Assembly: GCA_041649255.1 (NCBI GenBank)
Contig: JBAZNK010000006.1
Location: forward strand, 12,225-76,224
Length of the DNA: 64,000 nucleotides
Source of the DNA: a bacterium
GTDB taxonomy: Bacteria; Hydrothermota; UBA3073; JACQXS01; JAQTXJ01
Direction: 5' to 3'
Position numbers and translations under genes: made by a program
Part shown: positions 5,720 to 27,726 of the stretch, in pieces
Layout: each line of letters starts with the position of its first letter
Numbering within the stretch: the stretch's first letter is position 1
The notes under the pieces: generated by a model
The model's database searches: none
Told to the model about the DNA's origin: nothing
Seen by the model: only the letters and a program-made list of their open reading frames with translations

Positions 5720-6142
5720 CTAATTAATCTTTTTTTTAGAGGACTTAAAAGTACGTAATTTGTGTTTTTTTCTGTATTCTAGAGGTGTAGTATGTTCCCT
5801 GTCTTTGAAGATTCTGCAGAAATTTGTATCTTCAAGCCCCACTTTTTCTGCAATATATTTAGATTCAATTTTTGTTTTTACAAGCAATTTTTTTGCTTTT
5901 GCAACCCTCATGTCATTTATAAATTGCGGTAGACTAACTTTCATCGTATTTCCCCAGAGATATGAGAAACTCTTGTAACACATATTGGCGTAAGATGCAA
6001 TTCTTTCCAATGATAAATTTCTTTTTGTATAATTTTTCTCTATGTATTCAAGTCCTGTCCGGATTCTTTTGGAAGCATTTAACAGTTTTTTCTTGTATTT
6101 CCTGAGTTCTTTTGAATATATTTTATCAAGTTTTCGCTTCAT
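5720..6142 (-). CDS. AraC-family HTH transcriptional regulator; the HTH domain stands alone (140 aa).
   Basis: HTH_18-like region KVSLPQFINDMRVAKAKKLLVKTKIESKYIAEKVGLEDTNFCRIFKDREHTTPLEYRKK. It is paralogous to the C-terminus of the response regulator at 26923..27726. Confidence 0.75.
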   Translation of the reverse strand: MKRKLDKIYSKELRKYKKKLLNASKRIRTGLEYIEKNYTKRNLSLERIASYANMCYKSFSYLWGNTMKVSLPQFINDMRVAKAKKLLVKTKIESKYIAEKVGLEDTNFCRIFKDREHTTPLEYRKKHKLRTFKSSKKKIN

Positions 6143-6415: not shown

Positions 6416-7000
6416 TTATCTAAATCGTTTTACTTGTTCCCCCACAAAAAAAATTGCTCCGAAAAAGACAAAAGCTTCAATTCCATCTATAATCCATCTG
6501 AAACTGTAATATATGAAAGTAACCTTGTGTATTTTAAAATGCCCGACCCCTATTGCTAAGAAGGCTATCAATAAAAAAAGACTAATAATGGCTTTATAAT
6601 TCCAAATTAATTGTGGCGTTTTCCCGTCTGGTTGATTTTCCCTCAACCAACTTTCCCACATTAAAGCGTTAGATTTTTCTTTGAAAAAATGATTGACCTT
6701 TCCCTCAAGTTTGGCAAGAAATCTCCCAGCACGCATCATTCTTGCAACCTCCCCCGTCCAGGTAATTAATACCAAATAACTAACCAAAGGCACAAAAACT
6801 AAAAATATTAGCTCTGGTAACCATGCTTTATCCCATACATTAAAACCTGCCACTACCATTATACCTAACGTCGTTGTGCCGTAATGTAAGACAGATTGTT
6901 GTGTTTGCATTGATGTTAAGCTTTCTTCTCTGACTGTTTTGTATTCTTCGATGACTACAGATATCCAATCCATTTTAGTTTTCCTCCTATACTTTATCAT
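6416..7000 (-). CDS. Hypothetical integral membrane protein, 194 aa.
   Basis: Several hydrophobic helices (LGIMVVAGF, LIFLVFVPLVSYLVLI, IISLFLLIAFLAIGV, AFVFFGAIFFV). Confidence 0.45.
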   Translation of the reverse strand: MIKYRRKTKMDWISVVIEEYKTVREESLTSMQTQQSVLHYGTTTLGIMVVAGFNVWDKAWLPELIFLVFVPLVSYLVLITWTGEVARMMRAGRFLAKLEGKVNHFFKEKSNALMWESWLRENQPDGKTPQLIWNYKAIISLFLLIAFLAIGVGHFKIHKVTFIYYSFRWIIDGIEAFVFFGAIFFVGEQVKRFR

Positions 7001-7110
7001 AAAGTTTTTAATAATACAAAAAGCTCATCAAACAAAATATAGTCTAACTCGTTCATAGCTGAACTTAACTTAACTATCCTTTTTGTCAAGACCCCGTTGT
7101 TACCACTTTT

Positions 7111-7837
7111 TCACAATCCCCACTTCCCCTTCTCCACCTTCCCCTCTATAGCATTTTCCAGTGAATCAGGAAGTGCCGGGAAGAAATCAATCCCTGTCAA
7201 AACCTCCACAGAATCTATCGTAACAGCATAAGACGATAATGGCTTAGTTGATGATTTATTGGGCAAAACGAACCCGATGCATTTGAGTTCAGGCTCGTCA
7301 TAGTCAAGGATAACCTTATAATAGTATTTTGGCACTGCAACCTTGTCTTTTCCTATTGTAGGGAGTCCATCTTTTCAGTACTGGTCCTGTAACTATGTGA
7401 ATTTCGTCATTATCTCTCGCCCATGCCCTTGCTTTGTCTTCAAGACGCTTCCATATGCCTCGATTGAATCCTGCCATCTGAGGGCTCATATTTGACATAT
7501 AGAACGATTCTGACATTGATCCTGCAGAATATGCCATATCTCCTGCTGGGCACAAATGCCCTTTGTCGTAACCTGATTTTGCATAATCTGATGGCTTTGC
7601 AGAGCCTGTTTTTACCAAAGGATCTGCACGGAACTTGTTTGTTCTTTTGACTGCAGGTTTTTTCACCATTTCTTTTGTCAGTTTGTATGCTACCCAGTCT
7701 GCCTGTTCATATTTTTCGTCGTATTGAAGGGTGTAGGCAGTGTGGTGGATTATTTCGTCGGTTAATGTGTGGGAGGGGAGGTAGTTTGTGCTACCTCCTA
7801 TTAAAAAATAGTGAAAAACGAATAAACAAAGAATCAT
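7111..7837 (-). pseudogene. DNA/RNA non-specific endonuclease (Endonuclease_NS/NucA family) split by a single-base frameshift.
   Basis: Upstream piece 7316..7837 carries the DKGHLCPAGD (DRGH-type) catalytic motif and ends ...HIVTGPVLKRWTPYNRKRQGCSAKILL*. The -1 frame continues KDGLPTIGKDKVAVPKYYYKVILDYDEPELKCIGFVLPN, the conserved NucA C-terminus, as ORF 7111..7335. The shift sits at the A4 run in ctgaaaagatgg near 7370-7385. Confidence 0.7.
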
Positions 7838-7851
7838 TTACTGAGAGAAGA

Positions 7852-9915
7852 CTATCTTGATGGTTTTTTTAATAAAAATTTCAAAGGCTTCCATAAAAAG
7901 TATGTCCCTATTTCAACAGCAATAACGATAAGTCCAAGAATATTCCACGTTTTTTTACTACCAAGATATTTTAAACATAGTATTAATGTCGCAATTACCG
8001 ATATTGTCCAAACCCATGCCAATATTATGTTAATAGTATTTTTTACTCTAACGCGTCTCTCCTCTTGCTTTTTATCTAGAATCTTTTTTACTTCTTTTTG
8101 TACAGTATCAGGCATTTTATTGATTTCTTCTTGCAAGTTTTTTTCTGATGCTTCTGCACGTATTGTCGCTGTTTTCAAAGCTTGTGTTAGTTTTGTTACG
8201 CTTTCTGTCAATGCCTTTTTTTCATCTTCATTATTATTCGTAATTTTTTCTTGTGAAAAACGTTCTTCTATTCCATTTAACTTTTTCGATAACTTATAAG
8301 TTAATTCTTTTTTTAATTCTTCATTATATGGACGGCCTTTACGAATCTCATTTTTAATTAATTGAGTATACTCTCTGATTATTGATTCCGGCCATTTTTT
8401 TATATCTACTTCTATATCTGTCCAGAATTTAAAATCTTCTATATCGTAAATTTGTTCAAATGAAAAAAACTCTGATCCTAATACTCCACTGAACACAGAA
8501 GAAAAATTTTCTATTGAATTTTCAGGTACAAAGGGAGATATACACTGTAGCCAACTGTCTAATGTAAAACATGAAGGATTCGCTTCATTTTCAAAAATCA
8601 TTTTATTTGCTGGGGGCAGAGAGGTGTCTAAAGTTAAAAACCACGTTTCAGATTTTTCTTCCCGTTTGTTTTTGATAAGTAAAAAAAGAAATGCATCATG
8701 CAATAAAGTTCCATCTTTTTTTTCTTTTTTTCTTATCTCTTTAGATTTCTTTTGAAGTATGTTTTTTATCCTTTCTATATCTTTATCTTTTAGAATTGTA
8801 TCATAAAGGATATCGTCTTCAATACAAATTTTAAATTTATCCTTTAGCGTATTTTCTAAATCTTCAAAAGGTTCAAACAATTTATCAATCGTAAAGGTTG
8901 GATCCTTTTCTTTCGATTTCTTGTATACTTCATAAAAAGCGTTGTGAATCTGATCTTCCATAGTAGTTGGAATATTGTCATACGTATCTGAAATGCCTCG
9001 TTGATATTTGATTACATCTTTAATTTCTTTTTTAGTAACTTCCGAAACATAAAGAGAAATTCCTATATCTTGGGATATTTTATAAAACTCTTGGAAAGAA
9101 CGGGACATTTCAGCTTCACTTAGCAACCCTGTAATAATAACATTTGAATCTAAATAAATATAAGAATTATTAAAAGCATTTTTGGATAATACTCTGGATT
9201 TAGGGTCAATTCCTAATAATTTTAATATGTAAAAGTTTTGGGTCATATAGAATTTAAGAGAACTATATACAGGGTCTGAGCCTTGAAAAAAATTATAAAA
9301 TTCAGTTTTTATAACAGATATAAGTTCTGGATTAGTGAGTTTGAAAAAAGAAAGTCTTTGATTAAGTTTGTCATTTATTTGAGATGAATATAAGATATCT
9401 TTGTTGGAAAAATTACCTAACATCATTTTTGCGCTTTGTTGCCCAATTTGGGAAAAAACGAACACAATAAATTCTTTAAATAATGTTGATACGGTATTTA
9501 TTTGAGAGGAAGTAATTAATGAATAACGTTCTCTAATTCGAGTAATTATTTTTTCAACACATCTATTTAATATGTTTCCCCGTTCATTTATTTGTGTTTT
9601 TATTTTTTGTTTTTCTTTTATTAAAAAATAATCTCGCCCGTTTTGTTTATTGGATAATATAATATCTTTTTTTAAAAGAGATTCAATACTACTTGAAACT
9701 TGTGAAGTTCTTAACTGGACGGGACATTCGTTTCTCATCTTTTCTCTTATTGTTTCTATTGAAGCGCCTTCTGGATAAGTTTCTTGGAGAGTATACAAGC
9801 AATTTGTTACTATTCTTTCTATAGCTTCTTTTCTAGGATATTCTAATTGTGGACCAAAGGTAAAATTATAGGATAATATTACATCTATGTCTTCGGATAT
9901 GCTATAATCATTCAT
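7852..9915 (-). CDS. Large hypothetical protein of 687 aa, Lys-rich with coiled-coil character, a PIN-like motif and a C-terminal double TM anchor. It may be a defense or abortive-infection nuclease.
   Basis: Markedly AT-rich gene. IYLDSNVIITG ... LLHDAFLFLLIKNK ... WFLTLDTSL suggests a PIN-like fold. C-terminus ILAWVWTISVIATLILCLKYLG and WNILGLIVIAVEIGTYFLW. I recognise no family. Confidence 0.35.
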   Translation of the reverse strand: MNDYSISEDIDVILSYNFTFGPQLEYPRKEAIERIVTNCLYTLQETYPEGASIETIREKMRNECPVQLRTSQVSSSIESLLKKDIILSNKQNGRDYFLIKEKQKIKTQINERGNILNRCVEKIITRIRERYSLITSSQINTVSTLFKEFIVFVFSQIGQQSAKMMLGNFSNKDILYSSQINDKLNQRLSFFKLTNPELISVIKTEFYNFFQGSDPVYSSLKFYMTQNFYILKLLGIDPKSRVLSKNAFNNSYIYLDSNVIITGLLSEAEMSRSFQEFYKISQDIGISLYVSEVTKKEIKDVIKYQRGISDTYDNIPTTMEDQIHNAFYEVYKKSKEKDPTFTIDKLFEPFEDLENTLKDKFKICIEDDILYDTILKDKDIERIKNILQKKSKEIRKKEKKDGTLLHDAFLFLLIKNKREEKSETWFLTLDTSLPPANKMIFENEANPSCFTLDSWLQCISPFVPENSIENFSSVFSGVLGSEFFSFEQIYDIEDFKFWTDIEVDIKKWPESIIREYTQLIKNEIRKGRPYNEELKKELTYKLSKKLNGIEERFSQEKITNNNEDEKKALTESVTKLTQALKTATIRAEASEKNLQEEINKMPDTVQKEVKKILDKKQEERRVRVKNTINIILAWVWTISVIATLILCLKYLGSKKTWNILGLIVIAVEIGTYFLWKPLKFLLKKPSR

Positions 9916-10043
9916 TCTTATCCCCCTAGTTAAGTTTTTTCAACTTCCGATAATATAAGTTATGTATCAACCTTTGCTTATTTTTCGCTTTTTTCATAGC
10001 ATAATAAATTATACATATTTATCATTTTGTTGTTTGGCAAGAG

Positions 10044-10105
10044 AAAAGCATTTGCAAATATCTATATTTATGGACATTTTTCCATATTGGGGTATTTTAG
10101 GGGAT
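10044..10105 (-). promoter_or_regulatory. Conserved upstream element, family 1, copy 1. The first half matches; the second half is degenerate.
   Basis: aaaagcatttgcaaatatctatatttatggacattt matches the copies at 18678, 24321 and 26865. It lies ~130 nt upstream of the start of the minus-strand gene 7852..9915. Confidence 0.5.
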
Positions 10106-10194
10106 AGCGTTTTTGATAAAGGGGCTTAACATTCTCTTTATTTGTTAACGTGTTGCTAGTAAAAAAGTATATTTTTGTGAAAAGTTTGGGCTTG

Positions 10195-11769
10195 TTATTT
10201 TATCAAAATTAGCTTTTGGGTTTCTTTATGAGTGCCTGCAGTAAATTTCATAAAATAAACGCCTGTGGATAAGCCTTTTGCATTTAGAATTAGATTATAA
10301 CTGCCAGCTTCCTTTTCTTCGTTGACAAGAGTTTTAATTGTTCTGCCAGTTGCATCGTAGATTCTTAAAGAGACTTTGCTTTTTGTCGGCAATTGATAAT
10401 TTATAACGGTTGATTGTACAAATGGGTTGCGGGAAATTTGTAATTTAGGATTTAGGATTTGAGATTTTGATTTCTCCTCTATTCCCGGCCCTGTGTATTT
10501 GCAAACCCAGACTTTATTTGGTTTATAATAAATATCATTTGCATAGTTTGAAAACATAATCTCATTTGCGCCATCTCCATTTACATCCCCTGCATTTGCG
10601 ACAGTCCAGCCTATTTGTTGTAAACTATCTGTCCCTATTGCATAAGCTTCTGTTATAGTATCAACGGAAATTCCTCCTAAATATACATAAATTTTGCCTT
10701 TTGCATTATAACAACCAGCAGGATAATGACAACTTCCGATAACTAAAGCTTTTTCTCCAGATGAAAGAACATTTTCTATACCCGCAATGGTATATCCATA
10801 ATAAGTTCCTAAGGGATAAGGGAATGCATCCCCTGCAAAAATTATATCTTTTTTGTTATTCATTGGATTCCCACCCCAATATGCAAGAACTGTATCGTAT
10901 GCAAAAGGAATTCCGATACAAGCATCATCAAATCCATCGCTATTTAAATCAGGTAATAATGCGACATCTTCTCCAAAATCTCCTCCGTTTCCTAACATTT
11001 CAACATCGGGAATAGTATCCATAGAATTGCCACCATAATAAATGTATGCCTTTCCTCTCATACTACCATAATTTAAATCGGATACTAATAAATCTTCATA
11101 CCCATCATTATTTACATCGTATCCACTTGATAAAGACCACCCCAAACTAGCTTCTCCATTTAAAGTGATATGCTGGTTTGTATCACAGGAAGAATTGCCG
11201 AAATATATATCTACTCTTCCTCCTGCCGGGCCTAAACTTGGATTTCCAATTATTATGTCATCATACCCATCATTATTCAAATCTCCCATTTGTGGCGGTA
11301 ATTTCCCTTCATTGCGTCCGAATAGTTTGAAATCACATATTGTATCGGGAGAAACTCCACCTAAGTATACCCAAACTTCTCCTCCCCCTATTGCTATGTC
11401 ATCATACCCATCCCCATTATAATCTCCTATCTCTATATCATGTCCAAAGGACTCTCCGGGATCATATGGGCCTAAGAAAATTATATCCGGGATTGAATCC
11501 ATAGACTGTCCCCCATAATAACCGCATACATAATATTGGATAACAATATTTGTGTCTATGGTACTATACATTCTTCCCCCTACAAAAATATCACTGTATC
11601 CATCTCCATTTATATCTCCGGAAGAAAGTCCACATCCAAAACTACTGCCTACTATAGTGGAATCCAATTCTGTTATTGTCTGCAGCAGTTCCAGATTGTG
11701 CAGTTCCAAAGGATATATGGGGGATAAAAAAACAATATTTCCTAATAAAATACCTATAAAAAATTTCAT
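10195..11769 (-). CDS. Secreted FG-GAP/VCBS-type repeat beta-propeller protein with a T9SS C-terminal sorting domain.
   Basis: Repeats DINGDGYSDIFVGG, DYNGDGYDDIAIGG, DLNNDGYDDIIIGN, DVNNDGYEDLLVSD, DLNSDGFDDACIG, DVNGDGANEIMFSN. CTD ...GVYFMKFTAGTHKETQKLILIK. Confidence 0.8.
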   Translation of the reverse strand: MKFFIGILLGNIVFLSPIYPLELHNLELLQTITELDSTIVGSSFGCGLSSGDINGDGYSDIFVGGRMYSTIDTNIVIQYYVCGYYGGQSMDSIPDIIFLGPYDPGESFGHDIEIGDYNGDGYDDIAIGGGEVWVYLGGVSPDTICDFKLFGRNEGKLPPQMGDLNNDGYDDIIIGNPSLGPAGGRVDIYFGNSSCDTNQHITLNGEASLGWSLSSGYDVNNDGYEDLLVSDLNYGSMRGKAYIYYGGNSMDTIPDVEMLGNGGDFGEDVALLPDLNSDGFDDACIGIPFAYDTVLAYWGGNPMNNKKDIIFAGDAFPYPLGTYYGYTIAGIENVLSSGEKALVIGSCHYPAGCYNAKGKIYVYLGGISVDTITEAYAIGTDSLQQIGWTVANAGDVNGDGANEIMFSNYANDIYYKPNKVWVCKYTGPGIEEKSKSQILNPKLQISRNPFVQSTVINYQLPTKSKVSLRIYDATGRTIKTLVNEEKEAGSYNLILNAKGLSTGVYFMKFTAGTHKETQKLILIK

Positions 11770-11917: not shown

Positions 11918-14900
11918 CTACTTCATCAAAATCAATTTCTTTGTCTCTTTGTATTCACCAGCATTGAATTTCGCAAAGTAAATACCCGTTGGATAGTTCT
12001 TTGATTCAAGCGTTTCTTTGTAATAGCCGGGCAATCTTTCTCCTTCTACAAGAGTTTTTACGCATCGTCCTGTAAGGTCGTAGAGTTTCAAAGATACTTT
12101 GCTTGTTTTCGGTAGTGAATATTGAATCGTCGTTTTGTTCCTAAATGGATTTGGATAATTCTGATAGAGTTTGAAAACAAGCGGTTTAGAGATAGTTCCT
12201 TGTGGTCCGCCGCTTCCAAGTTCGCCTCTGCAAATCTTTCCATCTCCACCATCTGTAGCATTATCGGGGCCTACCCCATGAGTTACCAAAACATTTCCCG
12301 TAAAAGTCTCTACATTTCTTATAAGCGCAATTCTTCCACCAGCCGAGCCACCACCGTCTGCCTGTGTATTATTTGCTCCGTCATTTCCATTTGCCTCTAT
12401 GTTTCCTTCTCCTTTTAATGAATCACAGCTTATAAAAATTGAGCCACCGCTTCCAGCACCACCTGCATACCCGCTTGAATATTTATATCCAGCTTCTCCA
12501 TTTGCTGAAACTATTCCATCAATCGTTATCACATTTGCTGAAAGTTTTAATCTTCCTCCACCGGAACCTCCCGGGGCTACTGTATAGTTATCCCCAAAGC
12601 CTCCGCCTGAACCAAGAGATGTAGGATTAAGAGAATCTGCTTCACCATAAGCAACTCCACCTGATATTCCGCTTTCTCCGTTTCCACCTGTATTTCCATA
12701 CCCAGCTCCGCCGGCACCCGCTCCATTTACGCCGTTTGTGCCCTTGCCGGTTCCGTTTGATGTTAAGTAACCTTTTTTATCTGCACTTATTACTGCTCCT
12801 GAACTGACAGTTATCTCATTTGCCGTAATAGAAGCATTGCCTAATAGGGAATCTCCGGAATCAAGCTGGAATTTCACATTACTGAAATTCGCTCCATTAA
12901 CAAATGAAAGCCTGTCATGTGAACCTATTATCGTATTAACCGGAGAAACAAGCAATTCCACGCTTCCATTGGATTGAACTACTTTTATTATCCCGCTCTG
13001 TCCATCTTGTGCTCTATCAGGATATATTGATCCTGCTCCAACTCCTCCGTTTGCTAATAACTTTCCGCTAAAAGATGAATTTCTGTAATTAATTCTTAAA
13101 TAACCTGCGCCACCACCGCCACCTTGGGCTGTGCTTCTATATGCGCCATCTCCTCCATTTGTTTCCGCGATTCCGCTTCCAGAAATAGAATCACAGATTA
13201 TATAAATTGACCCTGCTCCACCGCCACCACCGGCATAAGATGAGCCACCTGCTTCTCCGTCTGTTCCATTCGATTCTATTTTTCCTGAAAGTGTTAATGT
13301 GGCTGTTGAGAGTTTAATTCTTCCTCCACCTGCTCCACCCCAAGCCGAATAAGAGCTGCCATTTCCACCACCACAGCCAAGGTAAGACATTGGAGAAAGA
13401 GTATCTGAATAAGCAACTCCACCCGATATTTCCGTTTCTCCTAAACCGCCTTGCCCACAGCATGCTCCACCGCCTGCTCCCGCGCCATTTGTACCATTTG
13501 AGCCTTTTCCCGGTCCGCTGGCTTTTGGATTCCCTTTGCCTGTAGAGCTTAAAGTGCCTAATAGTTGCATTGTTTGAGCTTCTACGTCTATGATACCGGT
13601 AGTAGAGTCAGTGCCATTGAATGCAACACTATTCATCGTAGCACCTGAATTTATCTTAAATAAACCGATATTGTAATGTCTGCCTGAAACGAGTCTTGTG
13701 CTGTCGGTCGTCCAAACCCAGTCAGCTCCGCCATGATTCGTTCCGCCAAGTCCTACACTTAACTGGAAGTGACGCACTCCGCCTGCTCCGGAGTTATAAA
13801 CATAGTTCGGATTAGTACGTAAGTTCTGTGTAGCCCCATTTCCAAGATCAAGCAAATATATGCCGTATCCCGAAGGCACATCGGACGGTAAAATGTTAAG
13901 TGTTATATTTTCGTTTGATTTATCCGTATTGACTTCAAAATTCCATACCATTGTGGAATCCGTAAGGTCAAGTGTTTTCCTGACATCCTGACAGAATTTA
14001 TCTCCCAATGGATGATTCCATTCGGAATGCGGGAAATAAAGATATACATAATTAGAAGGTGGAATGGAATATTTTGGAATATCATATCCTTCATCACAGC
14101 TGTCGGAAGCTTCTCCAATTACGCCTGCATAATTAGAAGTATCATTACCGAAACTTGCCGTGGCTTTGACTTGCACTTTCCAATCAAGAGGTAGAATAGT
14201 TTTTATCGGCATAAAAGTAATAGGACCTGAAACAGTACTTGCTATAGTAGCCGAGTCATTAATTCCCCAGTAGTTATTTTGAGTTAATATATTGTCTCCA
14301 GCTTGATTTAAAAAGTTCCATGTTGCGTTGCTATAGATGCTATTATTTCCCGGAGTATACTCTGCGCTTTGACAATTTATGTTCCCAAAGTTGAACCCTA
14401 TAGCTGAATTAGTGGATACCCCGATGTCATTAGCTATTATTGTATTCTCTCTTCCCATTAGGGAAGAATTTTCTGCTTTTATACCTGTTTCATTGTGATG
14501 TATTGTGTTTCCCCATAATTCTCCATGAGGAGCATTTGAGTACAATATCCCTGCTTCATTACAGTCTTTTATTTCAAAACCACAGATAGAAATATAAGAT
14601 TTTCCATTTACATTAAATCCATAGTCTCGAGAATTGTCACCAGTAATTACTACTCTTTCTCCCGGAACTGCAATATATGCAATAATACCACTATCAGGAT
14701 AACCTGAATTATAAGGTGTTATTGTTTCGTGGTATACGCCTTCTCTGACGGCAACTGCTTCGTCGGCTTTTAATACACTAGCAGCTTTTTGAATAGTTGC
14801 AAAAGGTTGTCCCTCAGTGCCTGGGTTCATATCACTGCCATTTGTACAATCTGCATAATACAACTTTTTATATTTAGAAACAGTTTTTTTAAGACTCCAT

Positions 14901-17900
14901 GGTCCCATTTGTCCTGACCTATGCATTGCACAGACAAAGAAAGTAATGTCCTGATGGAAAGGATTTTTTTCTAAATATTCATACCATGTCCTTTGAATTG
15001 GAGCGAATGATTGAAGATAATAATTTGCAGTTGCTTTTTGTCCCACCATTCTTCCTATAGGACAAACCCAATAGCCACCAAGATAGGGTTCGTAAGCAGA
15101 AGAACTTGCCCCAGTGAATGGTATCGGATCCCATACAAGACGGTAAATTTTTTGATTCGGAGATGTAAGAGTTTGGGATTGCCCTTTAAGGTTTGTTACT
15201 CGAGGAGGAATGGCATTATTTACAGCTAGAGTTGTGTTATAATTGGAAAAATCCGAAGGCATATCGTCACAGAGATCAGAAGGATTATTATCGTCAACCG
15301 CACGAATTCTATAAAAATAAGTCCTTCCAATTTCACCTGTCTTATCTTTATAATATACCGATCCTCCTGTCCCAGAGAGTTCATCAATATATTCAAATGG
15401 GCCATTTTGACTTATCTCTGAACGATAAATCCAATATTTCATGCTTGCTGTAGTTTGCCATGTTAAAACATCTTTACTTTCTTCCCCATGCTCACCTAAT
15501 GCAACTAAAAACATCGGTACGTTTGGGGCAGGAACAGATACCCAGGGAAGATTATAGGGAGTAGCTTTAAACGCACGCGTTTCAAGTACTGGCCTTCTTA
15601 ATAGTGATACTGAGTTGTCTTTCCAAACGATTTTAATTTTATAGTAGTAAGGTGTATCCCAAATTACCTTATCGTCCAAATAGGTATAATAATTATAGTT
15701 AGGTTCAGCATTTGATGGAGTGATATTATTTGTTAAACAATGGTAAGGGCCTTCTTCGCATACGCTGCGCCACACTTCATAATGGTCTATAATATCACTT
15801 GCACCACTACTTATATCCAACCAAGATTCTTTTTCAGTAATCCAACTTATTCTGACTTTTTGATCGTCACTGAAAACAAAGACCTTTCCTAAGGAAGGAG
15901 CGTAGTATCTACCAAGAAGTGTTCCTGTCTCGTAAGATCCGGCAGGAACCGGGTGTCTCCCTCCAGCCCAGGACATCCAACCTATATTTCCTTTACAATA
16001 TATGCTATAAAGGTCATCATTCTTCAGAAAATATTCCCGAGTTGGACCTTCAGCATTATAAATAACATCGGATGTTCCGACATAAAATCGTCTTCCCTCT
16101 ATCCCCAGATTTTCATGCCAAACATTCATAATCCATGTCGGGAACATTGCTCTTCCTGAAATAATTTCATCTATATTTTCTTTAGCCCATGATGGAGAAC
16201 TGTATTTTCCTACGCTTCCCGTAGATATTCCTATCCAAGAAGTAGCAGGGTCATTTTCTTTCCCTGAAATTCCGAAGTTTGCATGCCTTACATCATACCA
16301 TTCTACAGGAGTTCCGTTCCCAAAATCCCAGTCAGCGACACTCCATCCATCCGGATGAGAAGGCTCTTCATTCTCAAAAAGTGTCCATGCATTTGTTGCA
16401 TCCATTCTATTCCAAGTCGCTCCTCCATCTGTTGTTCGGGCAATGCCGGTATTTTTCGTTGTCATTGTCTCATCTCTTCCTTGATTGTCCATAGTTACCC
16501 AAACATACTGATAATTAGCTTTGTCAACCCATATGCTTCTGACACAGTCGGAAAGGGTTTTTATATCCCCATTTATTGCATAAGGGACAGGTTGTTGTAC
16601 TGCTGCCCACGTAGCTCCTCCTAAATTACTTCCGTTGTTTGTTTTTAAAACATACCCTTCAGAAGCCCCTATATATCCATTATTTACATCTGCGAAATCT
16701 ACACAGAAAAATGTAAGATTGTATGGAATCGATGAAGACACAAGGGATGTTGAGTTTATACAATCCCATGAGGAGCCACCATTCAAACTTCGCAATATAA
16801 TTCCTCTAGGTTGGGAAGAAATAGCTCCATACGCTTCATTCACACTTACTTGTTTATTTACTCCGACGATAAATATGGTGTTATTTGGAGAATTAGGTAT
16901 TTCACACACTCCTTGGAAATCCCAATCAGCTGGATTGATACCAGCAGAACTTAAAGAGGATGATTTGTCAGACCATGAAAAATCCGTATTCCTTCCAAGC
17001 ACCAATCCGTTATCTCCTACTGCCCAGTGTCCATTAACAGACCTTACAATTTGGTTCGTATTAATAGGTGCCTGTTGGTCAAACCAACCATATCTGGATA
17101 AAGTATCAAATGAAACTTGCGTAAGCCAGGTATTGTGATATTCCCATGATTTAGGCTCAAGTTTTGGTACACCAAGGTCATTATTAATATTGGATATGTG
17201 GTAACTATAGCAGGAGAATTGATCTCTACAAGATGCCCAACTTGACGAAGTTAGTATATCAACTCCTGTATTGTTAGAAATTGCCACTATCTCTGCATGT
17301 CCATCATTATTTATATCAGCTACAGCAGGATGTTCCCATCCAGTTCGAGATGTGAAAGTATTATCAATGATATCCATCCCCCCAGTGCCTCCCCTTATAA
17401 CATCATAGGCATATAAAGCATTAGTCCCTTCCCATATTATCTCCTTTATGCCATCTTTATCAATATCGCAAATAACAGGAGCAGGGGCCGAACCAGTCGT
17501 TCCATCAATTACATTTACTTGACGATATATAGTTGGTTGAACAGAAGGTCCGTTATCCCGAAGAACAAAGAGCATATCTTCCATATTATCAAAACTTGTA
17601 TTTGAAAATACTACAATTTCAGGTTTACTTTGATCATCTGCTTCATTTAAGTCGGCAATAGCCACCATAGACATGGTTTCCGCAGAATTTGTGCCTGAGG
17701 GGGTATGTATAAACCTCCATCTTTCTCGTAAGCTTGATAGTCCTGTATTCCATTCAAGACAATATAATACATTTTCATCTCCACCATGTACACCATCTGA
17801 CACTAAAATTTCAGGTTTTAAGTCACCATCAACGTCAGCTATTGCTACAGCTCCCATCATAGGAGTCGGTAAAACTGCCATCCACGTATGTTTCTGACCT

Positions 17901-18541
17901 CCAGAACCATTGAGACAATATACCGTACGACCACTCCCAAATATTATTTCCATGTCTCCATCTTCATCAATATCTGCAACTGCAGGAGATGTTGCATGTG
18001 TGGTAGTTGGAAATACCCAATCTTGTTGCAAGCTGTTAGTGCCATCCCAAGAAGCACAATGCAACCCATTATTTCCTCCTGCTAAAACTTTTGGGAAAAT
18101 ATCGCCGTTACTTACATAAGCAACCGTTAATCCCCCCCGTGCATAATTTTGTCCAGTCGGGATTGAATTCCCTAATTGTGCTAAAGTATTATCTAGACAA
18201 TAAATTCCTGCGTTAGTAGTATTGCCAGAACTGTTAAATAAAACTTCCGGAACATTATCATTGTTTATATCTGCTATTACTGGATGAAGAGGCTCATTGC
18301 CATTAGGTTCCCCGAATGCATACAGTAATGTACCTGTACTACTAAGACAATAAATAAAAGAATTTGAATTACCTATAACGATTTCTGAACCAGGTCCTAC
18401 GTTTGTTAAATCACTCACTGCTGGCGAACAAAGAAAAGTGTTTCCCGCCGCATTAAATGGCCATACTCCAAAACTATCTCCAACCATAAACCCCAACATT
18501 CCCACTATTACAACTACTTGCTTCAATAATCTCATCTCCAC
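11918..18541 (-). CDS. Giant secreted multidomain protein of 2207 aa. It has FG-GAP repeats, a pectate-lyase-like parallel beta-helix, FN3-like regions, two Gly-rich solenoid-like modules and a T9SS C-terminal sorting domain.
   Basis: FG-GAP: ADINNDNVPEVLF, ADIDEDGDMEIIFGSG, ADVDGDLKPEILVSDG, CDIDKDGIKEIIWEG, ADINNDGHAEIVAIS. Beta-helix: FATIQKAASVLKADEAVAVREGVYHE...GFEIKDCNEAGILYSN...NTIHHNETGIKAE. Two ~150-aa Gly-rich modules (GGGRIKLS...GGGGGAGSIYIICDS...; GGGRLKLSAN...GGAGSGGSIFISCDS...). CTD NYPNPFRNKTTIQY...IYFAKFNAGEYKETKKLILMK. Confidence 0.85.
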   Translation of the reverse strand: MEMRLLKQVVVIVGMLGFMVGDSFGVWPFNAAGNTFLCSPAVSDLTNVGPGSEIVIGNSNSFIYCLSSTGTLLYAFGEPNGNEPLHPVIADINNDNVPEVLFNSSGNTTNAGIYCLDNTLAQLGNSIPTGQNYARGGLTVAYVSNGDIFPKVLAGGNNGLHCASWDGTNSLQQDWVFPTTTHATSPAVADIDEDGDMEIIFGSGRTVYCLNGSGGQKHTWMAVLPTPMMGAVAIADVDGDLKPEILVSDGVHGGDENVLYCLEWNTGLSSLRERWRFIHTPSGTNSAETMSMVAIADLNEADDQSKPEIVVFSNTSFDNMEDMLFVLRDNGPSVQPTIYRQVNVIDGTTGSAPAPVICDIDKDGIKEIIWEGTNALYAYDVIRGGTGGMDIIDNTFTSRTGWEHPAVADINNDGHAEIVAISNNTGVDILTSSSWASCRDQFSCYSYHISNINNDLGVPKLEPKSWEYHNTWLTQVSFDTLSRYGWFDQQAPINTNQIVRSVNGHWAVGDNGLVLGRNTDFSWSDKSSSLSSAGINPADWDFQGVCEIPNSPNNTIFIVGVNKQVSVNEAYGAISSQPRGIILRSLNGGSSWDCINSTSLVSSSIPYNLTFFCVDFADVNNGYIGASEGYVLKTNNGSNLGGATWAAVQQPVPYAINGDIKTLSDCVRSIWVDKANYQYVWVTMDNQGRDETMTTKNTGIARTTDGGATWNRMDATNAWTLFENEEPSHPDGWSVADWDFGNGTPVEWYDVRHANFGISGKENDPATSWIGISTGSVGKYSSPSWAKENIDEIISGRAMFPTWIMNVWHENLGIEGRRFYVGTSDVIYNAEGPTREYFLKNDDLYSIYCKGNIGWMSWAGGRHPVPAGSYETGTLLGRYYAPSLGKVFVFSDDQKVRISWITEKESWLDISSGASDIIDHYEVWRSVCEEGPYHCLTNNITPSNAEPNYNYYTYLDDKVIWDTPYYYKIKIVWKDNSVSLLRRPVLETRAFKATPYNLPWVSVPAPNVPMFLVALGEHGEESKDVLTWQTTASMKYWIYRSEISQNGPFEYIDELSGTGGSVYYKDKTGEIGRTYFYRIRAVDDNNPSDLCDDMPSDFSNYNTTLAVNNAIPPRVTNLKGQSQTLTSPNQKIYRLVWDPIPFTGASSSAYEPYLGGYWVCPIGRMVGQKATANYYLQSFAPIQRTWYEYLEKNPFHQDITFFVCAMHRSGQMGPWSLKKTVSKYKKLYYADCTNGSDMNPGTEGQPFATIQKAASVLKADEAVAVREGVYHETITPYNSGYPDSGIIAYIAVPGERVVITGDNSRDYGFNVNGKSYISICGFEIKDCNEAGILYSNAPHGELWGNTIHHNETGIKAENSSLMGRENTIIANDIGVSTNSAIGFNFGNINCQSAEYTPGNNSIYSNATWNFLNQAGDNILTQNNYWGINDSATIASTVSGPITFMPIKTILPLDWKVQVKATASFGNDTSNYAGVIGEASDSCDEGYDIPKYSIPPSNYVYLYFPHSEWNHPLGDKFCQDVRKTLDLTDSTMVWNFEVNTDKSNENITLNILPSDVPSGYGIYLLDLGNGATQNLRTNPNYVYNSGAGGVRHFQLSVGLGGTNHGGADWVWTTDSTRLVSGRHYNIGLFKINSGATMNSVAFNGTDSTTGIIDVEAQTMQLLGTLSSTGKGNPKASGPGKGSNGTNGAGAGGGACCGQGGLGETEISGGVAYSDTLSPMSYLGCGGGNGSSYSAWGGAGGGRIKLSTATLTLSGKIESNGTDGEAGGSSYAGGGGGAGSIYIICDSISGSGIAETNGGDGAYRSTAQGGGGGAGYLRINYRNSSFSGKLLANGGVGAGSIYPDRAQDGQSGIIKVVQSNGSVELLVSPVNTIIGSHDRLSFVNGANFSNVKFQLDSGDSLLGNASITANEITVSSGAVISADKKGYLTSNGTGKGTNGVNGAGAGGAGYGNTGGNGESGISGGVAYGEADSLNPTSLGSGGGFGDNYTVAPGGSGGGRLKLSANVITIDGIVSANGEAGYKYSSGYAGGAGSGGSIFISCDSLKGEGNIEANGNDGANNTQADGGGSAGGRIALIRNVETFTGNVLVTHGVGPDNATDGGDGKICRGELGSGGPQGTISKPLVFKLYQNYPNPFRNKTTIQYSLPKTSKVSLKLYDLTGRCVKTLVEGERLPGYYKETLESKNYPTGIYFAKFNAGEYKETKKLILMK

Positions 18542-18677: not shown

Positions 18678-18752
18678 GTGCAAATATCTATATTTATGGA
18701 CATTTATCTATATTTATTTGCAAATATCTATGTGGGGAATTTTTCGAAGCGT
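18678..18752 (-). promoter_or_regulatory. Conserved upstream element, family 1, copy 2 (full length).
   Basis: gtgcaaatatctatatttatggacatttatctatatttatttgcaaatatctatgtggggaatttttcgaagcg. It lies ~135 nt upstream of the start of the giant gene (18541). Confidence 0.55.
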
Positions 18753-24320: not shown

Positions 24321-24400
24321 AAAGGCTTTGCAAATATCTATATTTATGGACATTTATCTATATTTATTTGCAAATATCTATGTGGGAAATTTTTCGAATA
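24321..24400 (-). promoter_or_regulatory. Conserved upstream element, family 1, copy 3.
   Basis: aaaggctttgcaaatatctatatttatggacatttatctatatttatttgcaaatatctatgtgggaaatttttcgaata. It lies ~115 nt upstream of the start of 23678..24205. Confidence 0.55.
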
Positions 24401-24653: not shown

Positions 24654-26693
24654 TTATTTTGTTTTTAACCGCTGTAAATATTCTAGATTTTTCCTTGATG
24701 CTTCACAAGTTGAGTCTATTGTTAAAGCTTTATTGTACTCATATATGGCTGAATCAATTGCCCCTTTAGCTCTATAGGCATTTCCAAGAGTATTATATGC
24801 TTCTGCCAGATCAGGCTTTAGTTTTATTGCCTCCTTAGATTCGTTTATTGCTTTATCAAACAATCCTTTTCTTTCATAAACATCTCCAAGATTGTTGTGT
24901 ATCTCCGGTGAATCGGGATTTAGTATTAAAGCTTTTTTGTATTCCTGAATTGCTTCGTCAAACAATCCTTTTTGTGCATAAATATTTCCAAGATTGTTAT
25001 GTATTTCAGGAAAATTGGGGTTTAGTATTAACTCTTTTTTGTATTCTTGAATTGCTTCTTCAAATAATCCTTTTTTTGTATAAATATTCCCAAAATTATT
25101 GTGTATACCAGGCGTATTAGGATTTAGCATTAAAGTTTTTTTGTACTTTTGGATTGCTTCATCTAATAATCCTTTTCTTTCATAAACATCTCCAAGATTG
25201 TTGTGTATATCCGGTGAATCGGGATTTAGTATTAAAGCTTTTTTGTATTCTTGGATTGCTTCATCCAACAATCCTTTTTGTGCATAAATATTTCCAAGAT
25301 TATTATATGTTTCAGGGCAAAAAGAATTATATTTCAATATATTCTGAAATAAAGTAATTTGGTTTTTCCAAATATTGTTTTGCCGTATAGTAAGTCCGGC
25401 ATACATAAGAATTACCGCAGCGATAAAGAACTTTATAATGTTTTTGAACCCTGTTGTAAAAGGCAACCTAAGAGTTTTATCAATGCCTGTTGCCAGAATC
25501 ATAAAGAACCCTATGGATGGAAGATATATCCAATGCTCAAGCATTCCTCTTGGTAGAGGTACTATAAGATGAGAGGTAGGGATAAAGAACAACAAAAACC
25601 ATAATGCACCAAAGAAAACAATTCTATTATATTTGTATGCCATAATTACTCCTATTCCTATAATTATAAATACTAAAACTGCAGGATCAAATATAGAAGT
25701 TGTTATAGTTAAAATGCGGTCCATGTATAACCCAAATGGAAGAAAAAGTAATTTCAAATATAGAACAATACTTTTACAGGTAGTAAGCAGTCTTAAGTAA
25801 AAGTTGATTTTACCAGAAGGCCAATTACCAAAGGTTAAAACATAAATCCTCAACAATATATACAGTAAAGTTCCTAAGAAAAAAGGGGCATATAAAAACA
25901 AAAAAGAGTAATTATTTTTTATTTTTTCTCTTAAAGTTAAAACATTTATGTTTAACCCTAATGAGTAATCATACAATACTAGTATAAATGGAAGCATTAC
26001 TGCTGTCTCTTTGGATAACAGGGCAAATATGAAAGAAAAAATTGCACCAGTATAGTAGTAATACTTTTTTTGATTACGCAAGTTAAAACCTGTTTCTATT
26101 GATGAAGTTTGGCGATATTTAATAAACAATATAAGCGTTAATAATATAAAACTGCTTACCATTAAGTCTGTCCTGCCTGAAATATAGGCTACCGCTTCCG
26201 TATGTAGGGGATGCACGACAAAAAGCAAACCTGTAATTAACGAAACTCTTGGGGTGCGGGAGATTAAATTTACAAAGAAATACACAAGTACTGCAGTCAG
26301 TAAATGCCATAGTAAATTACTAAAATGATAACCTGTTGGATTAAGTCGCCACAAATAATAATCAAGCATATTAGATATAGACTGAAAAGGACGATAGTAG
26401 TAATAATGATTAGTGTTTTTATTGTTTCTGTGAGAAGGATCGTCTTTCATACAAAAGATATCTGTAGTGAAGATTTTAGGAATATATTTCCAATTTTTAA
26501 TATAAGGGTTTTTTTCTATAATAGGAATATCATCATAAACGAATTCATTTCTGAAAGAATTGACATATACGATTATACCAAGGATAATTATTGCAAGGAT
26601 GTGGATAAAACGTTTCCCTCTTAAAAGTCCTTTTGATTTTTGTAGTAAGTAACTTATACCTGTTTGCCTATCGTACAAGTTTTGTCTTTTCAT
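24654..26693 (-). CDS. PMT/TMTC-like polytopic membrane glycosyltransferase (GT39-like) with a C-terminal TPR repeat array.
   Basis: N-terminal ~450 aa with more than 10 TM segments and a YDDIPIIEKNPY loop motif. C-terminal 6-7 TPR units (AxQEYKKALILNPDSPxIHNNLGxVYxRKGLxDEA) are encoded by near-identical 102-bp DNA repeats at 24848-25360. Confidence 0.75.
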   Translation of the reverse strand: MKRQNLYDRQTGISYLLQKSKGLLRGKRFIHILAIIILGIIVYVNSFRNEFVYDDIPIIEKNPYIKNWKYIPKIFTTDIFCMKDDPSHRNNKNTNHYYYYRPFQSISNMLDYYLWRLNPTGYHFSNLLWHLLTAVLVYFFVNLISRTPRVSLITGLLFVVHPLHTEAVAYISGRTDLMVSSFILLTLILFIKYRQTSSIETGFNLRNQKKYYYYTGAIFSFIFALLSKETAVMLPFILVLYDYSLGLNINVLTLREKIKNNYSFLFLYAPFFLGTLLYILLRIYVLTFGNWPSGKINFYLRLLTTCKSIVLYLKLLFLPFGLYMDRILTITTSIFDPAVLVFIIIGIGVIMAYKYNRIVFFGALWFLLFFIPTSHLIVPLPRGMLEHWIYLPSIGFFMILATGIDKTLRLPFTTGFKNIIKFFIAAVILMYAGLTIRQNNIWKNQITLFQNILKYNSFCPETYNNLGNIYAQKGLLDEAIQEYKKALILNPDSPDIHNNLGDVYERKGLLDEAIQKYKKTLMLNPNTPGIHNNFGNIYTKKGLFEEAIQEYKKELILNPNFPEIHNNLGNIYAQKGLFDEAIQEYKKALILNPDSPEIHNNLGDVYERKGLFDKAINESKEAIKLKPDLAEAYNTLGNAYRAKGAIDSAIYEYNKALTIDSTCEASRKNLEYLQRLKTK
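24848..25360 (-). repeat. Tandem ~102-bp near-identical coding repeats (TPR units) inside 24654..26693.
   Basis: For example atctccaagattgttgtgtat(c/a)tccggtgaatcgggatttagtattaaagcttttttgtattc occurs at ~24883 and ~25189. Confidence 0.8.
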
Positions 26694-26864: not shown

Positions 26865-26945
26865 AAAAGCATTTGCAAATATCTATATTTATGGACATTT
26901 ATCTATTTTTATTTGCAAATATCTATGTGGGGAATTCTTGAGAAT
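26865..26945 (-). promoter_or_regulatory. Conserved upstream element, family 1, copy 4. A similarity tail extends to ~26972 and overlaps the 3' end of the response-regulator gene.
   Basis: aaaagcatttgcaaatatctatatttatggacatttatctatttttatttgcaaatatctatgtggggaattcttg. It lies ~170 nt upstream of the start of the TPR/PMT gene (26693). Confidence 0.55.
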
Positions 26946-27726
26946 GGGAATTTCTATATTTAAGTGGCGAAGTTCCCATTTTTGTTTTGAAAACCCGATT
27001 GAAATTGTGGAAGTCAAATCCTACGCTATGAGCTATTTGAGATGTATAATTTGTTGTTTCTAAAAGCAGTCTCTTTGCATTTGTTGTTCTAATGTCATTT
27101 ATAAAATCAGGTAAGCTAACTTTTGTTGTCGTGTTCCATAAAAAAGAAAAACGTTTAGGATTTAGAGTTACCGAAGAAGCAATCTCTTTTAAACCTAAAT
27201 CCGGATTTGCATAATTCTTTTTTATATATTCAACTGCTTTCTGAACCTTGAAGGGTAAATTTTGGGGAAGCGCAATCTCCTGTGTATTTGATTCCCCTGT
27301 ATTCTTTGTATTCAACGAAGTTTTATTTTGTTCTTCAATTAGCGCATGAATTTTTGTAAGTAGTTCTTCTATGTTGAACGGTTTTTCAAAATAATATGAT
27401 GCCCCGTTGTTTAAGGCATGGAGAATATTCTCTTTGGTAGAGTGCCCTGTCATCATTACTATTTTTATATCAGGATGTATCTTTTTAAAAACAGGAATCA
27501 ACGCTGTCCCTTCAATGTCCGGCAGTTTAATATCAAGCAAAGCAACGTTGAATTTTTTCCACTCAAGTTTTTTTATTGCTTCTTTCCCTGTCAGCACATA
27601 ACTTACTTCATACCGTTCTTTTTCAAAGAGCATTTTCAGCGTTTTACAAAATTCCGGCTCGTCATCTACCACAAGAACACTTCGATTATGCTCCATTTTC
27701 TTAAGAAACTCCTGTCTTGCATTCAT
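26923..27726 (-). CDS. Response regulator with a receiver domain and an AraC-type HTH output domain.
   Basis: REC: VLVVDDEPEFCKTLKMLF...ALLDIKLPDIEGTALIPVFKK...IVMMTGHSTKE...GASYYFEKPFNIEEL. C-terminal AraC HTH: KVSLPDFINDIRTTNAKRLLLETTNYTSQIAHSVGFDFHNFNRVFKTKMGTSPLKYR. Confidence 0.85.
   Translation of the reverse strand: MNARQEFLKKMEHNRSVLVVDDEPEFCKTLKMLFEKERYEVSYVLTGKEAIKKLEWKKFNVALLDIKLPDIEGTALIPVFKKIHPDIKIVMMTGHSTKENILHALNNGASYYFEKPFNIEELLTKIHALIEEQNKTSLNTKNTGESNTQEIALPQNLPFKVQKAVEYIKKNYANPDLGLKEIASSVTLNPKRFSFLWNTTTKVSLPDFINDIRTTNAKRLLLETTNYTSQIAHSVGFDFHNFNRVFKTKMGTSPLKYRNSHSQEFPT

Follow-up and report, generated by a model that had tools for sequence, protein, structure and literature searches.

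A four-module protein with a PIN-like core and a predicted C-terminal membrane hairpin, possibly engaged in defence or genetic conflict

We suggest that a gene for a protein of 687 amino acids (aa), found in a bacterium of the Hydrothermota, specifies a PIN-domain nuclease anchored in the membrane by a C-terminal hairpin. The gene lies in a window of 64,000 nucleotides, the whole stretch of DNA that was analysed (contig JBAZNK010000006.1 of assembly GCA_041649255.1, positions 12,225 to 76,224 of the forward strand). Its product is identical to the NCBI protein WC614_05520, named 'hypothetical protein [bacterium]', which is encoded on a contig of 146 kb of a metagenome-assembled genome (MAG). 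From the N to the C terminus, the protein appears to comprise a winged helix-turn-helix (wHTH), a PIN core, a long helical stalk and a transmembrane (TM) hairpin, and we regard this architecture and the PIN assignment as highly probable. As for the function, our tentative reading, with a probability of roughly 0.45, is that this single gene moves horizontally and that its product, a nuclease tethered to the membrane, acts in defence or genetic conflict; the defence role itself is suggested by the genomic context of the relatives and by analogy. The PIN superfamily and its DUF4935/PIN_12 branch are known; the four-module architecture with a C-terminal membrane hairpin was not described in the sources searched, namely Pfam, NCBIfam, PADLOC v2, PHROGs and the searchable literature.

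The PIN core and the modules around it

Five independent lines of evidence, drawn from sequence comparison and from a structural model, appear to agree on a PIN core with an intact active site. In an alignment of 76 sequences, D256, E297, K399, H406, D407 and D430 are invariant, T/S294, T/S428 and N258 are nearly so, and T/S428-x-D430 is conserved as a motif. In canonical PIN domains, the D-E-D-D tetrad has its first residue where strand 1 ends, one residue each in the helices that follow strands 2 and 3, and its last in a T-x-D after strand 4 (PMC12065111), and D256, E297, D407 and D430 fit this placement relative to the strands of the model (residues 252-255, 287-291, 364-366, 424-428 and 449-451), where the predicted local distance difference test (pLDDT) scores are 92-98. 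Two helical inserts enlarge the core, one of helices 292-361 after the strand at 287-291 and the other of helices 370-420 after the strand at 364-366. An earlier note, made from the letters of this DNA alone, had likened three motifs to the conserved segments of a PIN-fold nuclease, and they were found as it quoted them: IYLDSNVIITG at 253-263 (D256), LLHDAFLFLL at 404-413 (H406/D407) and FLTLDTSL at 426-433 (D430). The fourth residue of the tetrad, E297, had escaped it. Judged from the alignment, the PIN active site is under strong purifying selection.

Profile comparisons point in the same direction. The Pfam families PIN_3, PIN_12 and PIN matched 16, 12 and 12 of 66 relatives, respectively, with best E-values of 1e-6 to 6e-5, and the matches begin at the position equivalent to YLDTNV. 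In the relative P0034, residues 243-422 aligned with positions 1-169 of the 172 in PIN_12 at 28.8 bits (the gathering threshold is 32 bits), and the PIN_12 scores of other relatives were 17-18 bits. The window protein alone had no PIN match in Pfam. Using hhalign, we compared the family profile with a genuine PIN_3 VapC that is encoded at one of the homologous loci (L019) and obtained an E-value of 2.9e-5 and a probability of 74%. This alignment covers the first beta-alpha-beta unit; D256 is paired with the aspartate of the VapC LDTNV and E297 with the conserved glutamate of VapC. The profile of 76 sequences searched against PDB sequences found winged-helix and coiled-coil/TM matches only and no PIN domain.

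On the side of structure, Foldseek searches of the PDB with the AlphaFold model returned the PIN proteins 2fe1 (probabilities of 0.99 and 0.94), 5x3t_B, which is a VapBC of M. tuberculosis (0.92), and 1w8i (0.77). The first of them, PAE0151, belongs to the VapC-like PIN.COG4113 cluster (PMC5499597). The best Foldseek match overall was a phage 'PIN like domain' protein of 366 aa in BFVD, with an E-value of 4.5e-3 and a probability of 1.0 over 321 columns. The PIN-like nuclease of the earlier note thus gained support from the tetrad, from Pfam in the relatives, from VapC in hhalign and from Foldseek. We infer that the protein is a nuclease, that its substrate would be RNA or DNA, and that it may act as an oligomer.

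The model was built on the 76 sequences, which share only about 20-25% identity with the window protein. It reached a mean pLDDT of 87.1 and a predicted template-modelling score (pTM) of 0.70, compared to a pLDDT of 62 with six sequences. For the winged helix at the N terminus, Foldseek gave a probability of 1.0 to F-93, AF1382, MecI, PadR and the WH domain of KAT6A; the profile had weak winged-helix matches to AspA, histone H1 and PadR in the PDB, and Penicillinase_R had matches in two relatives. Such a clear N-terminal wHTH, together with the names 'MarR family' or 'predicted transcriptional regulator' that JGI gives to some members, would also suit a transcription regulator tethered to the membrane, with the wHTH doing the work and a PIN-like domain that does no more than bind a ligand or RNA. 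Catalytically dead PIN domains do exist in defence proteins, for example in Menshen NsnC (PMC12065111). However, the four catalytic acidic residues as well as K399 and H406 are invariant in this family, and the PIN core is the most conserved of the domains (0.50) whereas the wHTH is among the less conserved. The hairpin also comes without an external sensor domain. A tethered regulator is therefore, in our opinion, very improbable.

Between the wHTH and the PIN core lies an all-helical linker domain that ends in a conserved FFxxxDPxxxxLKFxLxQxYYxxxLLGxD segment in the alignment consensus; no family or fold match was found for the domain (aa ~101-250). The helical segment after the PIN core (aa ~463-531) was likewise without a match, and its conserved columns include F475 and, in close relatives, E493 and P509. 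It is followed by the stalk, in which 43% of the residues are charged. The stalk is probably a coiled coil, to judge from the model, and probably mediates oligomerisation. The earlier note had described the whole product as rich in Lys and Glu and coiled-coil-like. The composition was as described (Lys 11.2%, Glu 9.2%), but the coiled-coil character is confined to the stalk helices at 532-600 and 603-650.

The two C-terminal TM helices that had been proposed were recovered as well, with Kyte-Doolittle values of 2.54 at 630-648 and 1.63 at 656-674, and at least one TM segment is predicted in the last 130 aa of 144 of the 145 full-length relatives. The charges flanking the hairpin are +5, +3 and +5, with +5 before TM1 and +5 after TM2, and the N-terminal part of about 630 residues contains no hydrophobic segment. 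Because of these positive flanks and the lack of an N-terminal hydrophobic segment, the simplest topology would be an N-in/C-in hairpin with the domains in the cytoplasm.

Stalk and hairpin are the least conserved parts of the protein (0.25 and 0.22, respectively), and searches of Pfam, NCBIfam, PADLOC and PDB sequences with a single sequence yielded weak matches only, most of which fell on this tail. In the window protein they were weak matches to DUF4164, LeoBC, ZorA and PomB. Positions 356-497 of the PADLOC model LeoBC aligned with aa 533-675 (window about 7891-8319), with an E-value of 2.3e-5. LeoC was found in 8 of the 66 relatives and LmuC, PbeC and JetC were scattered among them, none on the PIN or wHTH domains. 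We also noted DUF2207_C matches in 11 of the 66 relatives, and WRB/GET1 in the PDB, on the stalk/TM-hairpin region. These matches are probably compositional, arising from a coiled coil plus a hairpin, and the sequences would still allow a membrane-insertion 'paddle' design shared with LeoBC/LeoC, DUF2207_C and WRB/GET1-type proteins. Membership in the Eleos/LeoBC systems was rejected, as the match is confined to the stalk and TM region, there is no GTPase domain and no partner is conserved.

Distribution and genomic contexts of the family

The earlier note had considered the gene an ORFan, which did not hold. When 1.84 billion cluster representatives were searched exhaustively with an HMMER profile, 975 of them matched at E<=1e-3; 693 reached E<=1e-10 and 344 reached E<=1e-30, compared to only six relatives in a word-indexed homolog search. 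Most of the listed profile matches span most of their length, mostly 650-780 aa, and the family has a median length of 704 aa (interquartile range 681-743). The relatives are named 'hypothetical protein', 'predicted nucleic acid-binding protein' or, as mentioned, regulators; a cultured carrier, Herpetosiphon gulosus, has its copy (WP_345721243.1) named 'DUF4935 domain-containing protein', a label that UniRef gives to the relative P0033. One long-form candidate, P0007 (ENA, 877 aa, on a 3.1-kb contig), aligned over the first ~283 residues only and then diverged. The probable cause is a chimera or a frameshift in the gene call, and P0007 was left out of the alignments.

The distribution is patchy. 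Carriers include an archaeon-labelled MAG, an Acidobacteriota MAG, Herpetosiphon and unclassified bacteria, among them MAGs that bear a type IX secretion system (T9SS). The closest relatives of the window protein are 54% identical and lie on contigs of ~33-34% GC, one of which is labelled 'uncultured archaeon'. Clusters of the family hold one to six members. A single peptide pattern derived from 11 sequences occurred at two loci in 185,579 species-representative genomes and at nine metagenome loci.

Low GC content accompanies the family. At all 13 of 13 loci the GC of the gene is below that of its flanks, by 0.008 to 0.134, so the AT shift is a property of the family and not a specific sign of recent transfer here. 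The earlier note had taken it as a sign of foreign origin, and for the same reason we discarded the GC deviation as proof of a recent transfer into the window genome. Low GC has been reported as a feature of defence genes (PMC13092281). In the closest relatives (L001/L007, GCA_964654075.1), the gene has a GC of 0.33 and the flanks 0.34, and the window gene lies 0.09 below its surroundings. This contrast hints at a transfer from a donor lineage of lower GC.

To describe the surroundings of the gene, all open reading frames (ORFs) within 5 kb of the homolog were compared with one another at 16 loci, and shared neighbours appeared only among near-identical syntenic contigs. With no neighbour conserved across divergent loci, the gene is a stand-alone unit, and its adjacency to an endonuclease gene in the window is coincidental. 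There were 14 classifiable independent contexts (the window and L014 were unclassifiable, L013 and L015 too short), and eight of them had restriction-modification (R-M), toxin-antitoxin (TA), abortive infection (Abi) or mobile-element genes within about 5 kb. One group of loci (L001/L002/L009/L010) contained a NotI restriction endonuclease with its methyltransferase, SocA_Panacea and HNH genes; others had a TnpB-like fragment and N6_Mtase (L005), or AbiEii (L012). In L019/L020 we found PhdYeFM with PIN_3 (a VapBC pair), HNH, an integrase fragment, the gene itself, a methyltransferase, DUF8370/8371 and a helicase. L024 had RE_endonuc with a methyltransferase immediately upstream and MT-A70 with PDDEXK downstream.

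A distant homolog, P0018, lies in a compact defence island (L018, 1-18061; GCA_016935765.1, JAFGQG010000137.1) with an N6_Mtase/Eco57I-type methyltransferase, an SMC/AAA_15 ATPase, the gene, SLFN_AlbA_2 (Schlafen-AlbA_2), an SNF2 helicase and Fic. Por_Secre_tail genes, which encode T9SS cargo, flank this island on either side, and the window gene is likewise set among T9SS cargo genes. The resemblance suggests similar host lineages.

Two contexts look like integrated elements. In Herpetosiphon (L023), the gene sits in a mobile element with DUF3987, Toprim, ParM-like, Replic_Relax and primase genes, next to a HEPN gene. The other (L025) is prophage-like, with Prim-Pol, terminase, resolvase, an excisionase-type HTH and integrase, inserted beside tig-clpP-clpX-lon. 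These neighbours raise the thought that the protein works for an integrative or conjugative element in its life cycle and not in defence; it might, for instance, process or resolve DNA at the membrane while the element is transferred or replicated. An apparatus for DNA transfer would fit well with a location at the membrane, and wHTH domains commonly bind double-stranded DNA. However, no such gene is consistently linked, many copies lie among R-M or housekeeping genes without transfer machinery, and the PIN core belongs with the VapC-like PINs and not with the FEN-like PINs that process DNA. We consider a role of this kind quite improbable.

The kinship with VapC leads to a further alternative, in which the gene would be a selfish, toxin-like addiction or exclusion module. 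The protein would be a VapC-like ribonuclease, the wHTH would autoregulate as VapB does, membrane sequestration would replace the antitoxin, and the benefit, by maintenance or by keeping out competitors, would fall to the element and not to the host in the form of immunity to phages. VapC (2fe1 PAE0151, 5x3t) shares the catalytic tetrad and appears to share the fold, and the PIN core is related to PINs of the VapC group (PMC5499597). Several copies are in integrated elements or beside integrase or resolvase genes, and the wHTH resembles repressors of the BlaI/MecI/PadR type in a protein that has no separate antitoxin. However, VapC has ~130 aa compared to 687 aa here, with ~110 residues of inserts in the core and fused wHTH, stalk and TM parts; known TA toxins are far simpler than a four-module protein of 700 aa whose stalk and TM hairpin are conserved. 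Unlike in VapBC, no adjacent antitoxin gene is conserved in the 5-kb neighbourhoods of the family. The absence of copies from the sequenced plasmids, phages and viral contigs searched also argues against it, as do the roughly half of the contexts that are without marks of mobile elements. We therefore think a toxin-like module unlikely. It does overlap with the defence reading, and the two are hard to separate computationally.

The remaining six of the 14 contexts are plainly housekeeping (L004, L008, L016, L017, L021 and L022), with genes for PFOR, TonB/AsmA, rubrerythrin, RuvABC, lipoate/sigma factor and toast-rack/SatD. This could be expected of a housekeeping membrane ribonuclease in RNA turnover or processing, whose layout of anchor, coiled coil and nuclease would recall RNase Y or COG4956/YacL. 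Membrane PIN proteins of the COG4956 group do exist (PMC5499597), and the window copy has an operator box of the host type. On the other hand, COG4956/YacL resembles the present family only in that a PIN domain is attached to the membrane. It has four N-terminal TM helices and a TRAM domain, whereas the present family has the opposite topology, with a C-terminal hairpin, a stalk and a wHTH; the PIN subfamily differs, and TRAM had no match in the window protein or the 66 relatives. A housekeeping enzyme is also hard to reconcile with a family that is so rare and patchy, with small clusters and two pattern matches in all the species-representative genomes, that is scattered over an archaeon-labelled MAG and unrelated bacterial groups with a GC below the flanks everywhere, and that often resides in R-M or mobile-element islands. 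This explanation has, in our view, a small chance of being right.

Several observations weigh against a defence nuclease. All the Pfam PIN matches that were examined individually are below the gathering threshold, and the PIN matches of Foldseek in the PDB have target-normalised TM-scores of 0.49-0.61, with E-values above 0.1 for all PDB matches. Taken by itself, the structural comparison thus favours a PIN fold but is not statistically decisive. Given such scores, we regard the protein as a divergent relative of PIN_12/DUF4935 and have not filed it as a member. No NCBIfam or PHROG model covers the family, and no PADLOC model matches the window protein or the 66 relatives beyond weak matches. 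The eight contexts out of 14 are a small sample without a background rate, and the six housekeeping contexts stand beside them. No relatives were found in viral contigs, and the annotated phage and plasmid records searched with the window protein and P0033 contained no copies. In the window's own neighbourhood there is no recognisable defence gene, and the host-type operator box of the PIN gene is atypical of constitutive defence genes.

Nevertheless, an accessory role in conflict or defence is favoured, because the distribution is patchy, the GC is low throughout the family, there is no partner, and about half of the loci are in defence islands or elements. The earlier note had proposed a defence module or horizontally acquired cargo. 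At the level of the family the contexts and the patchy distribution support this, but no model of a known defence system matches beyond weak hits.

Gene, upstream box and neighbours in the window

The features of the PIN gene and of its upstream element are listed in Table 1. A GGGGG ribosome-binding site lies 6-7 nucleotides (nt) 5' of the ORF start. The AT-richness that had been noticed is real: with a GC of 0.282 and a GC at third codon positions (GC3) of 0.201, the gene is the lowest in both among the 30 main ORFs of the window (z of about -2.3 and -2.1, respectively), and the window as a whole has a GC of 0.371.

Table 1. Positions of the PIN gene, its protein modules and the repeated upstream boxes in the window
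Feature	Position	Strand	Details
Complete gene, wHTH / PIN / stalk / TM-hairpin protein	7852..9915	minus	687 aa; ATG start; stop codon 7852-7854
Winged helix-turn-helix, aa ~31-100	9616..9825	minus	model H-H-H, then beta hairpin; pLDDT 90-96
All-helical linker domain, aa ~101-250	9166..9615	minus	AlphaFold helices 102-248; pLDDT 75-98
PIN_12/DUF4935-like PIN core (predicted), aa ~251-462	8530..9165	minus	invariant residues, strands, Pfam in relatives, hhalign, Foldseek
Catalytic codons (putative)	D256 9148-9150; E297 9025-9027; D407 8695-8697; D430 8626-8628	minus	
Other invariant codons	K399 8719-8721; H406 8698-8700	minus	
Post-PIN helical segment, aa ~463-531	8323..8529	minus	conserved columns; model pLDDT 66-85
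Long charged alpha-helical stalk, aa ~532-628	8032..8322	minus	helix 532-600, continues 603-650
C-terminal TM hairpin (predicted)	7855..8031	minus	TM1 aa 630-648 (7972-8028); TM2 aa 656-674 (7894-7950); 7-residue loop
Single box ATAGATATTTGCA, probable operator	10053-10065 (element 10035..10065)	minus	repeat family D12; contains palindrome ATTTGCAAAT
All copies of ATAGATATTTGCA	10053-10065, 18679-18691, 18719-18731, 24329-24341, 24369-24381, 26874-26886, 26914-26926	minus	
Gene with paired boxes: 2207-aa protein	11918..18541		T9SS-type C-terminal tail
Gene with paired boxes: small T9SS-tailed protein	23678..24205		
Gene with paired boxes: TPR protein	24654..26693	minus	

Seven copies of the 13-mer ATAGATATTTGCA are present in the window, compared to an expectation of 0.28. 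Three other genes are each preceded by two copies that lie 40 bp apart, and the PIN gene by one copy only, which agrees with the half copy of an upstream element that the earlier note had reported. About 12 nt past each proximal box there is a hexamer like TTG(A/C)C, and at the PIN gene it is TTGCCA (10035-10040), ~12 nt downstream of the single box. From their sequence and placement the boxes look like the operator of a local regulon, and the single box is a probable promoter or operator of the PIN gene. Since this host-type box is common to T9SS cargo genes, it suggests that the PIN gene has been integrated in a host regulon. A scan for sigma-70 promoters and terminators over 6900-10300 gave no enrichment over shuffled sequences.

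Two AraC-type proteins of the window are worth mentioning beside these boxes. One, of 140 aa (5720-6142, minus strand), is a receiver-less paralog of the other (26923-27726, minus strand), a response regulator with an AraC HTH; they share 45% identity over 106 aa (E 4e-31), and the 3' end of the larger gene overlaps one of the operator pairs. Either protein might be the one that recognises these boxes. The TPR gene, which has a full operator pair upstream, ranks third in AT content among the 30 ORFs (GC 0.305) and contains four tandem 102-nt repeats at its 3' end (24678-25283).

Upstream of the PIN gene is an intergenic region of 279 bp, followed by FG-GAP and other T9SS-tailed proteins (from 10195). 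On the other side, 14 bp downstream and on the same strand, is an Endonuclease_NS gene split into two frames (7316..7837 and 7111..7335), so that the earlier description of this neighbour as a broken nuclease was correct. The break (7111-7837, minus strand) is a single-base frameshift in an AAAA run at ~7372-7375, and deletion of one A restores an uninterrupted Endonuclease_NS of 241 aa (...VTGPVLKDGLPTIGKDKVAVPKYYYKVILDY...). The frameshift may be a homopolymer error in the assembly of the MAG and not a true pseudogene. The earlier note had also thought that the two genes might form a module, and we rejected such a functional pairing, as no homolog has an endonuclease of this kind as neighbour. 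Beyond it is a 194-aa protein without a Pfam match, which may be a membrane protein to judge from its hydrophobic stretches. Next come an 89-aa protein, in which motifs with Cys point to a zinc ribbon, and the 140-aa AraC-type protein; further on, the opposite strand carries Thi4, DUF488 and LMWPc genes. PADLOC had no match for the four products scanned near the PIN gene.

Relation to known systems and biological meaning

The closest described group is DUF4935/PIN_12, in which a long helical insert follows strand 2 and two helices follow strand 3, and which is monocistronic and of unknown function (PMC5499597); in the literature searched, only two papers mention DUF4935. The present family shares with it the D-E-D-D tetrad, the helical insert after strand 2, the extra helices after strand 3 and the single-gene arrangement. 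However, the described members have ~350 aa and are without the wHTH and helical domain, the stalk of ~100 aa and the TM hairpin.

In layout, the protein is reminiscent of SNIPE, a membrane-bound nuclease made of a single protein that cuts phage DNA during injection and that becomes toxic by cleavage of the cell's own DNA when its TM domain is missing (PMC13190303). Both are stand-alone genes for one protein that combines a nuclease with a membrane anchor and a module for binding nucleic acid, and in both the nuclease is best conserved, while the anchor is least conserved in sequence yet usually present. The parts themselves are non-homologous. SNIPE has an N-terminal TM segment, DUF4041 and GIY-YIG, whereas the present family has an N-terminal wHTH, a PIN core and a C-terminal hairpin; DUF4041 and GIY-YIG had no match in the window protein (Pfam, E<=1), among the families listed for the relatives, or in PADLOC. 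The likeness would thus be one of layout and mechanism, an analogy only. A second precedent is DS-3, a one-protein PIN defence system that was validated by DefensePredictor, has no cognate antitoxin and depends on its PIN catalytic residues to defend against phage (PMC13092281). It resembles the present family as a single-gene PIN system without antitoxin; by its description, its PIN domain is split between the N and C termini, and a membrane anchor and a wHTH are not described.

With SNIPE and DS-3 as precedents, the following mechanism is plausible for a tethered defence nuclease. The C-terminal TM hairpin would hold the whole soluble part of the protein on the cytoplasmic face of the membrane, and anchor and stalk would keep a dangerous nuclease off the bulk of the cellular nucleic acid and near the point at which foreign nucleic acid comes in. 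The winged helix may help to select or hold the substrate, i.e. the incoming nucleic acid, which the PIN site would then cleave. The protein would act alone, with no partner gene, and most likely against phages or mobile elements. Carried further, this would amount to an independent invention of spatial discrimination between self and non-self, in which a membrane-parked PIN domain destroys phage or plasmid nucleic acid at entry, as an analogue of SNIPE built from unrelated parts in reverse order and shared between bacteria and archaea. We consider this extended form rather unlikely as it stands.

If the defence reading is wrong, the relatives would still be a well-defined, uncharacterised family of accessory proteins. 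If it is true, the gene would represent a new single-gene immune system, with an architecture absent from the catalogue, the families and the literature searched, and it would provide the first functional context for the DUF4935/PIN_12 branch, which has been without an assigned function since 2017. The idea is directly testable because there is a cultured carrier, H. gulosus. The protein would then be a second, structurally unrelated membrane-tethered nuclease after SNIPE, and would bear on whether tethering is a general means by which non-specific nucleases are made safe for their hosts.

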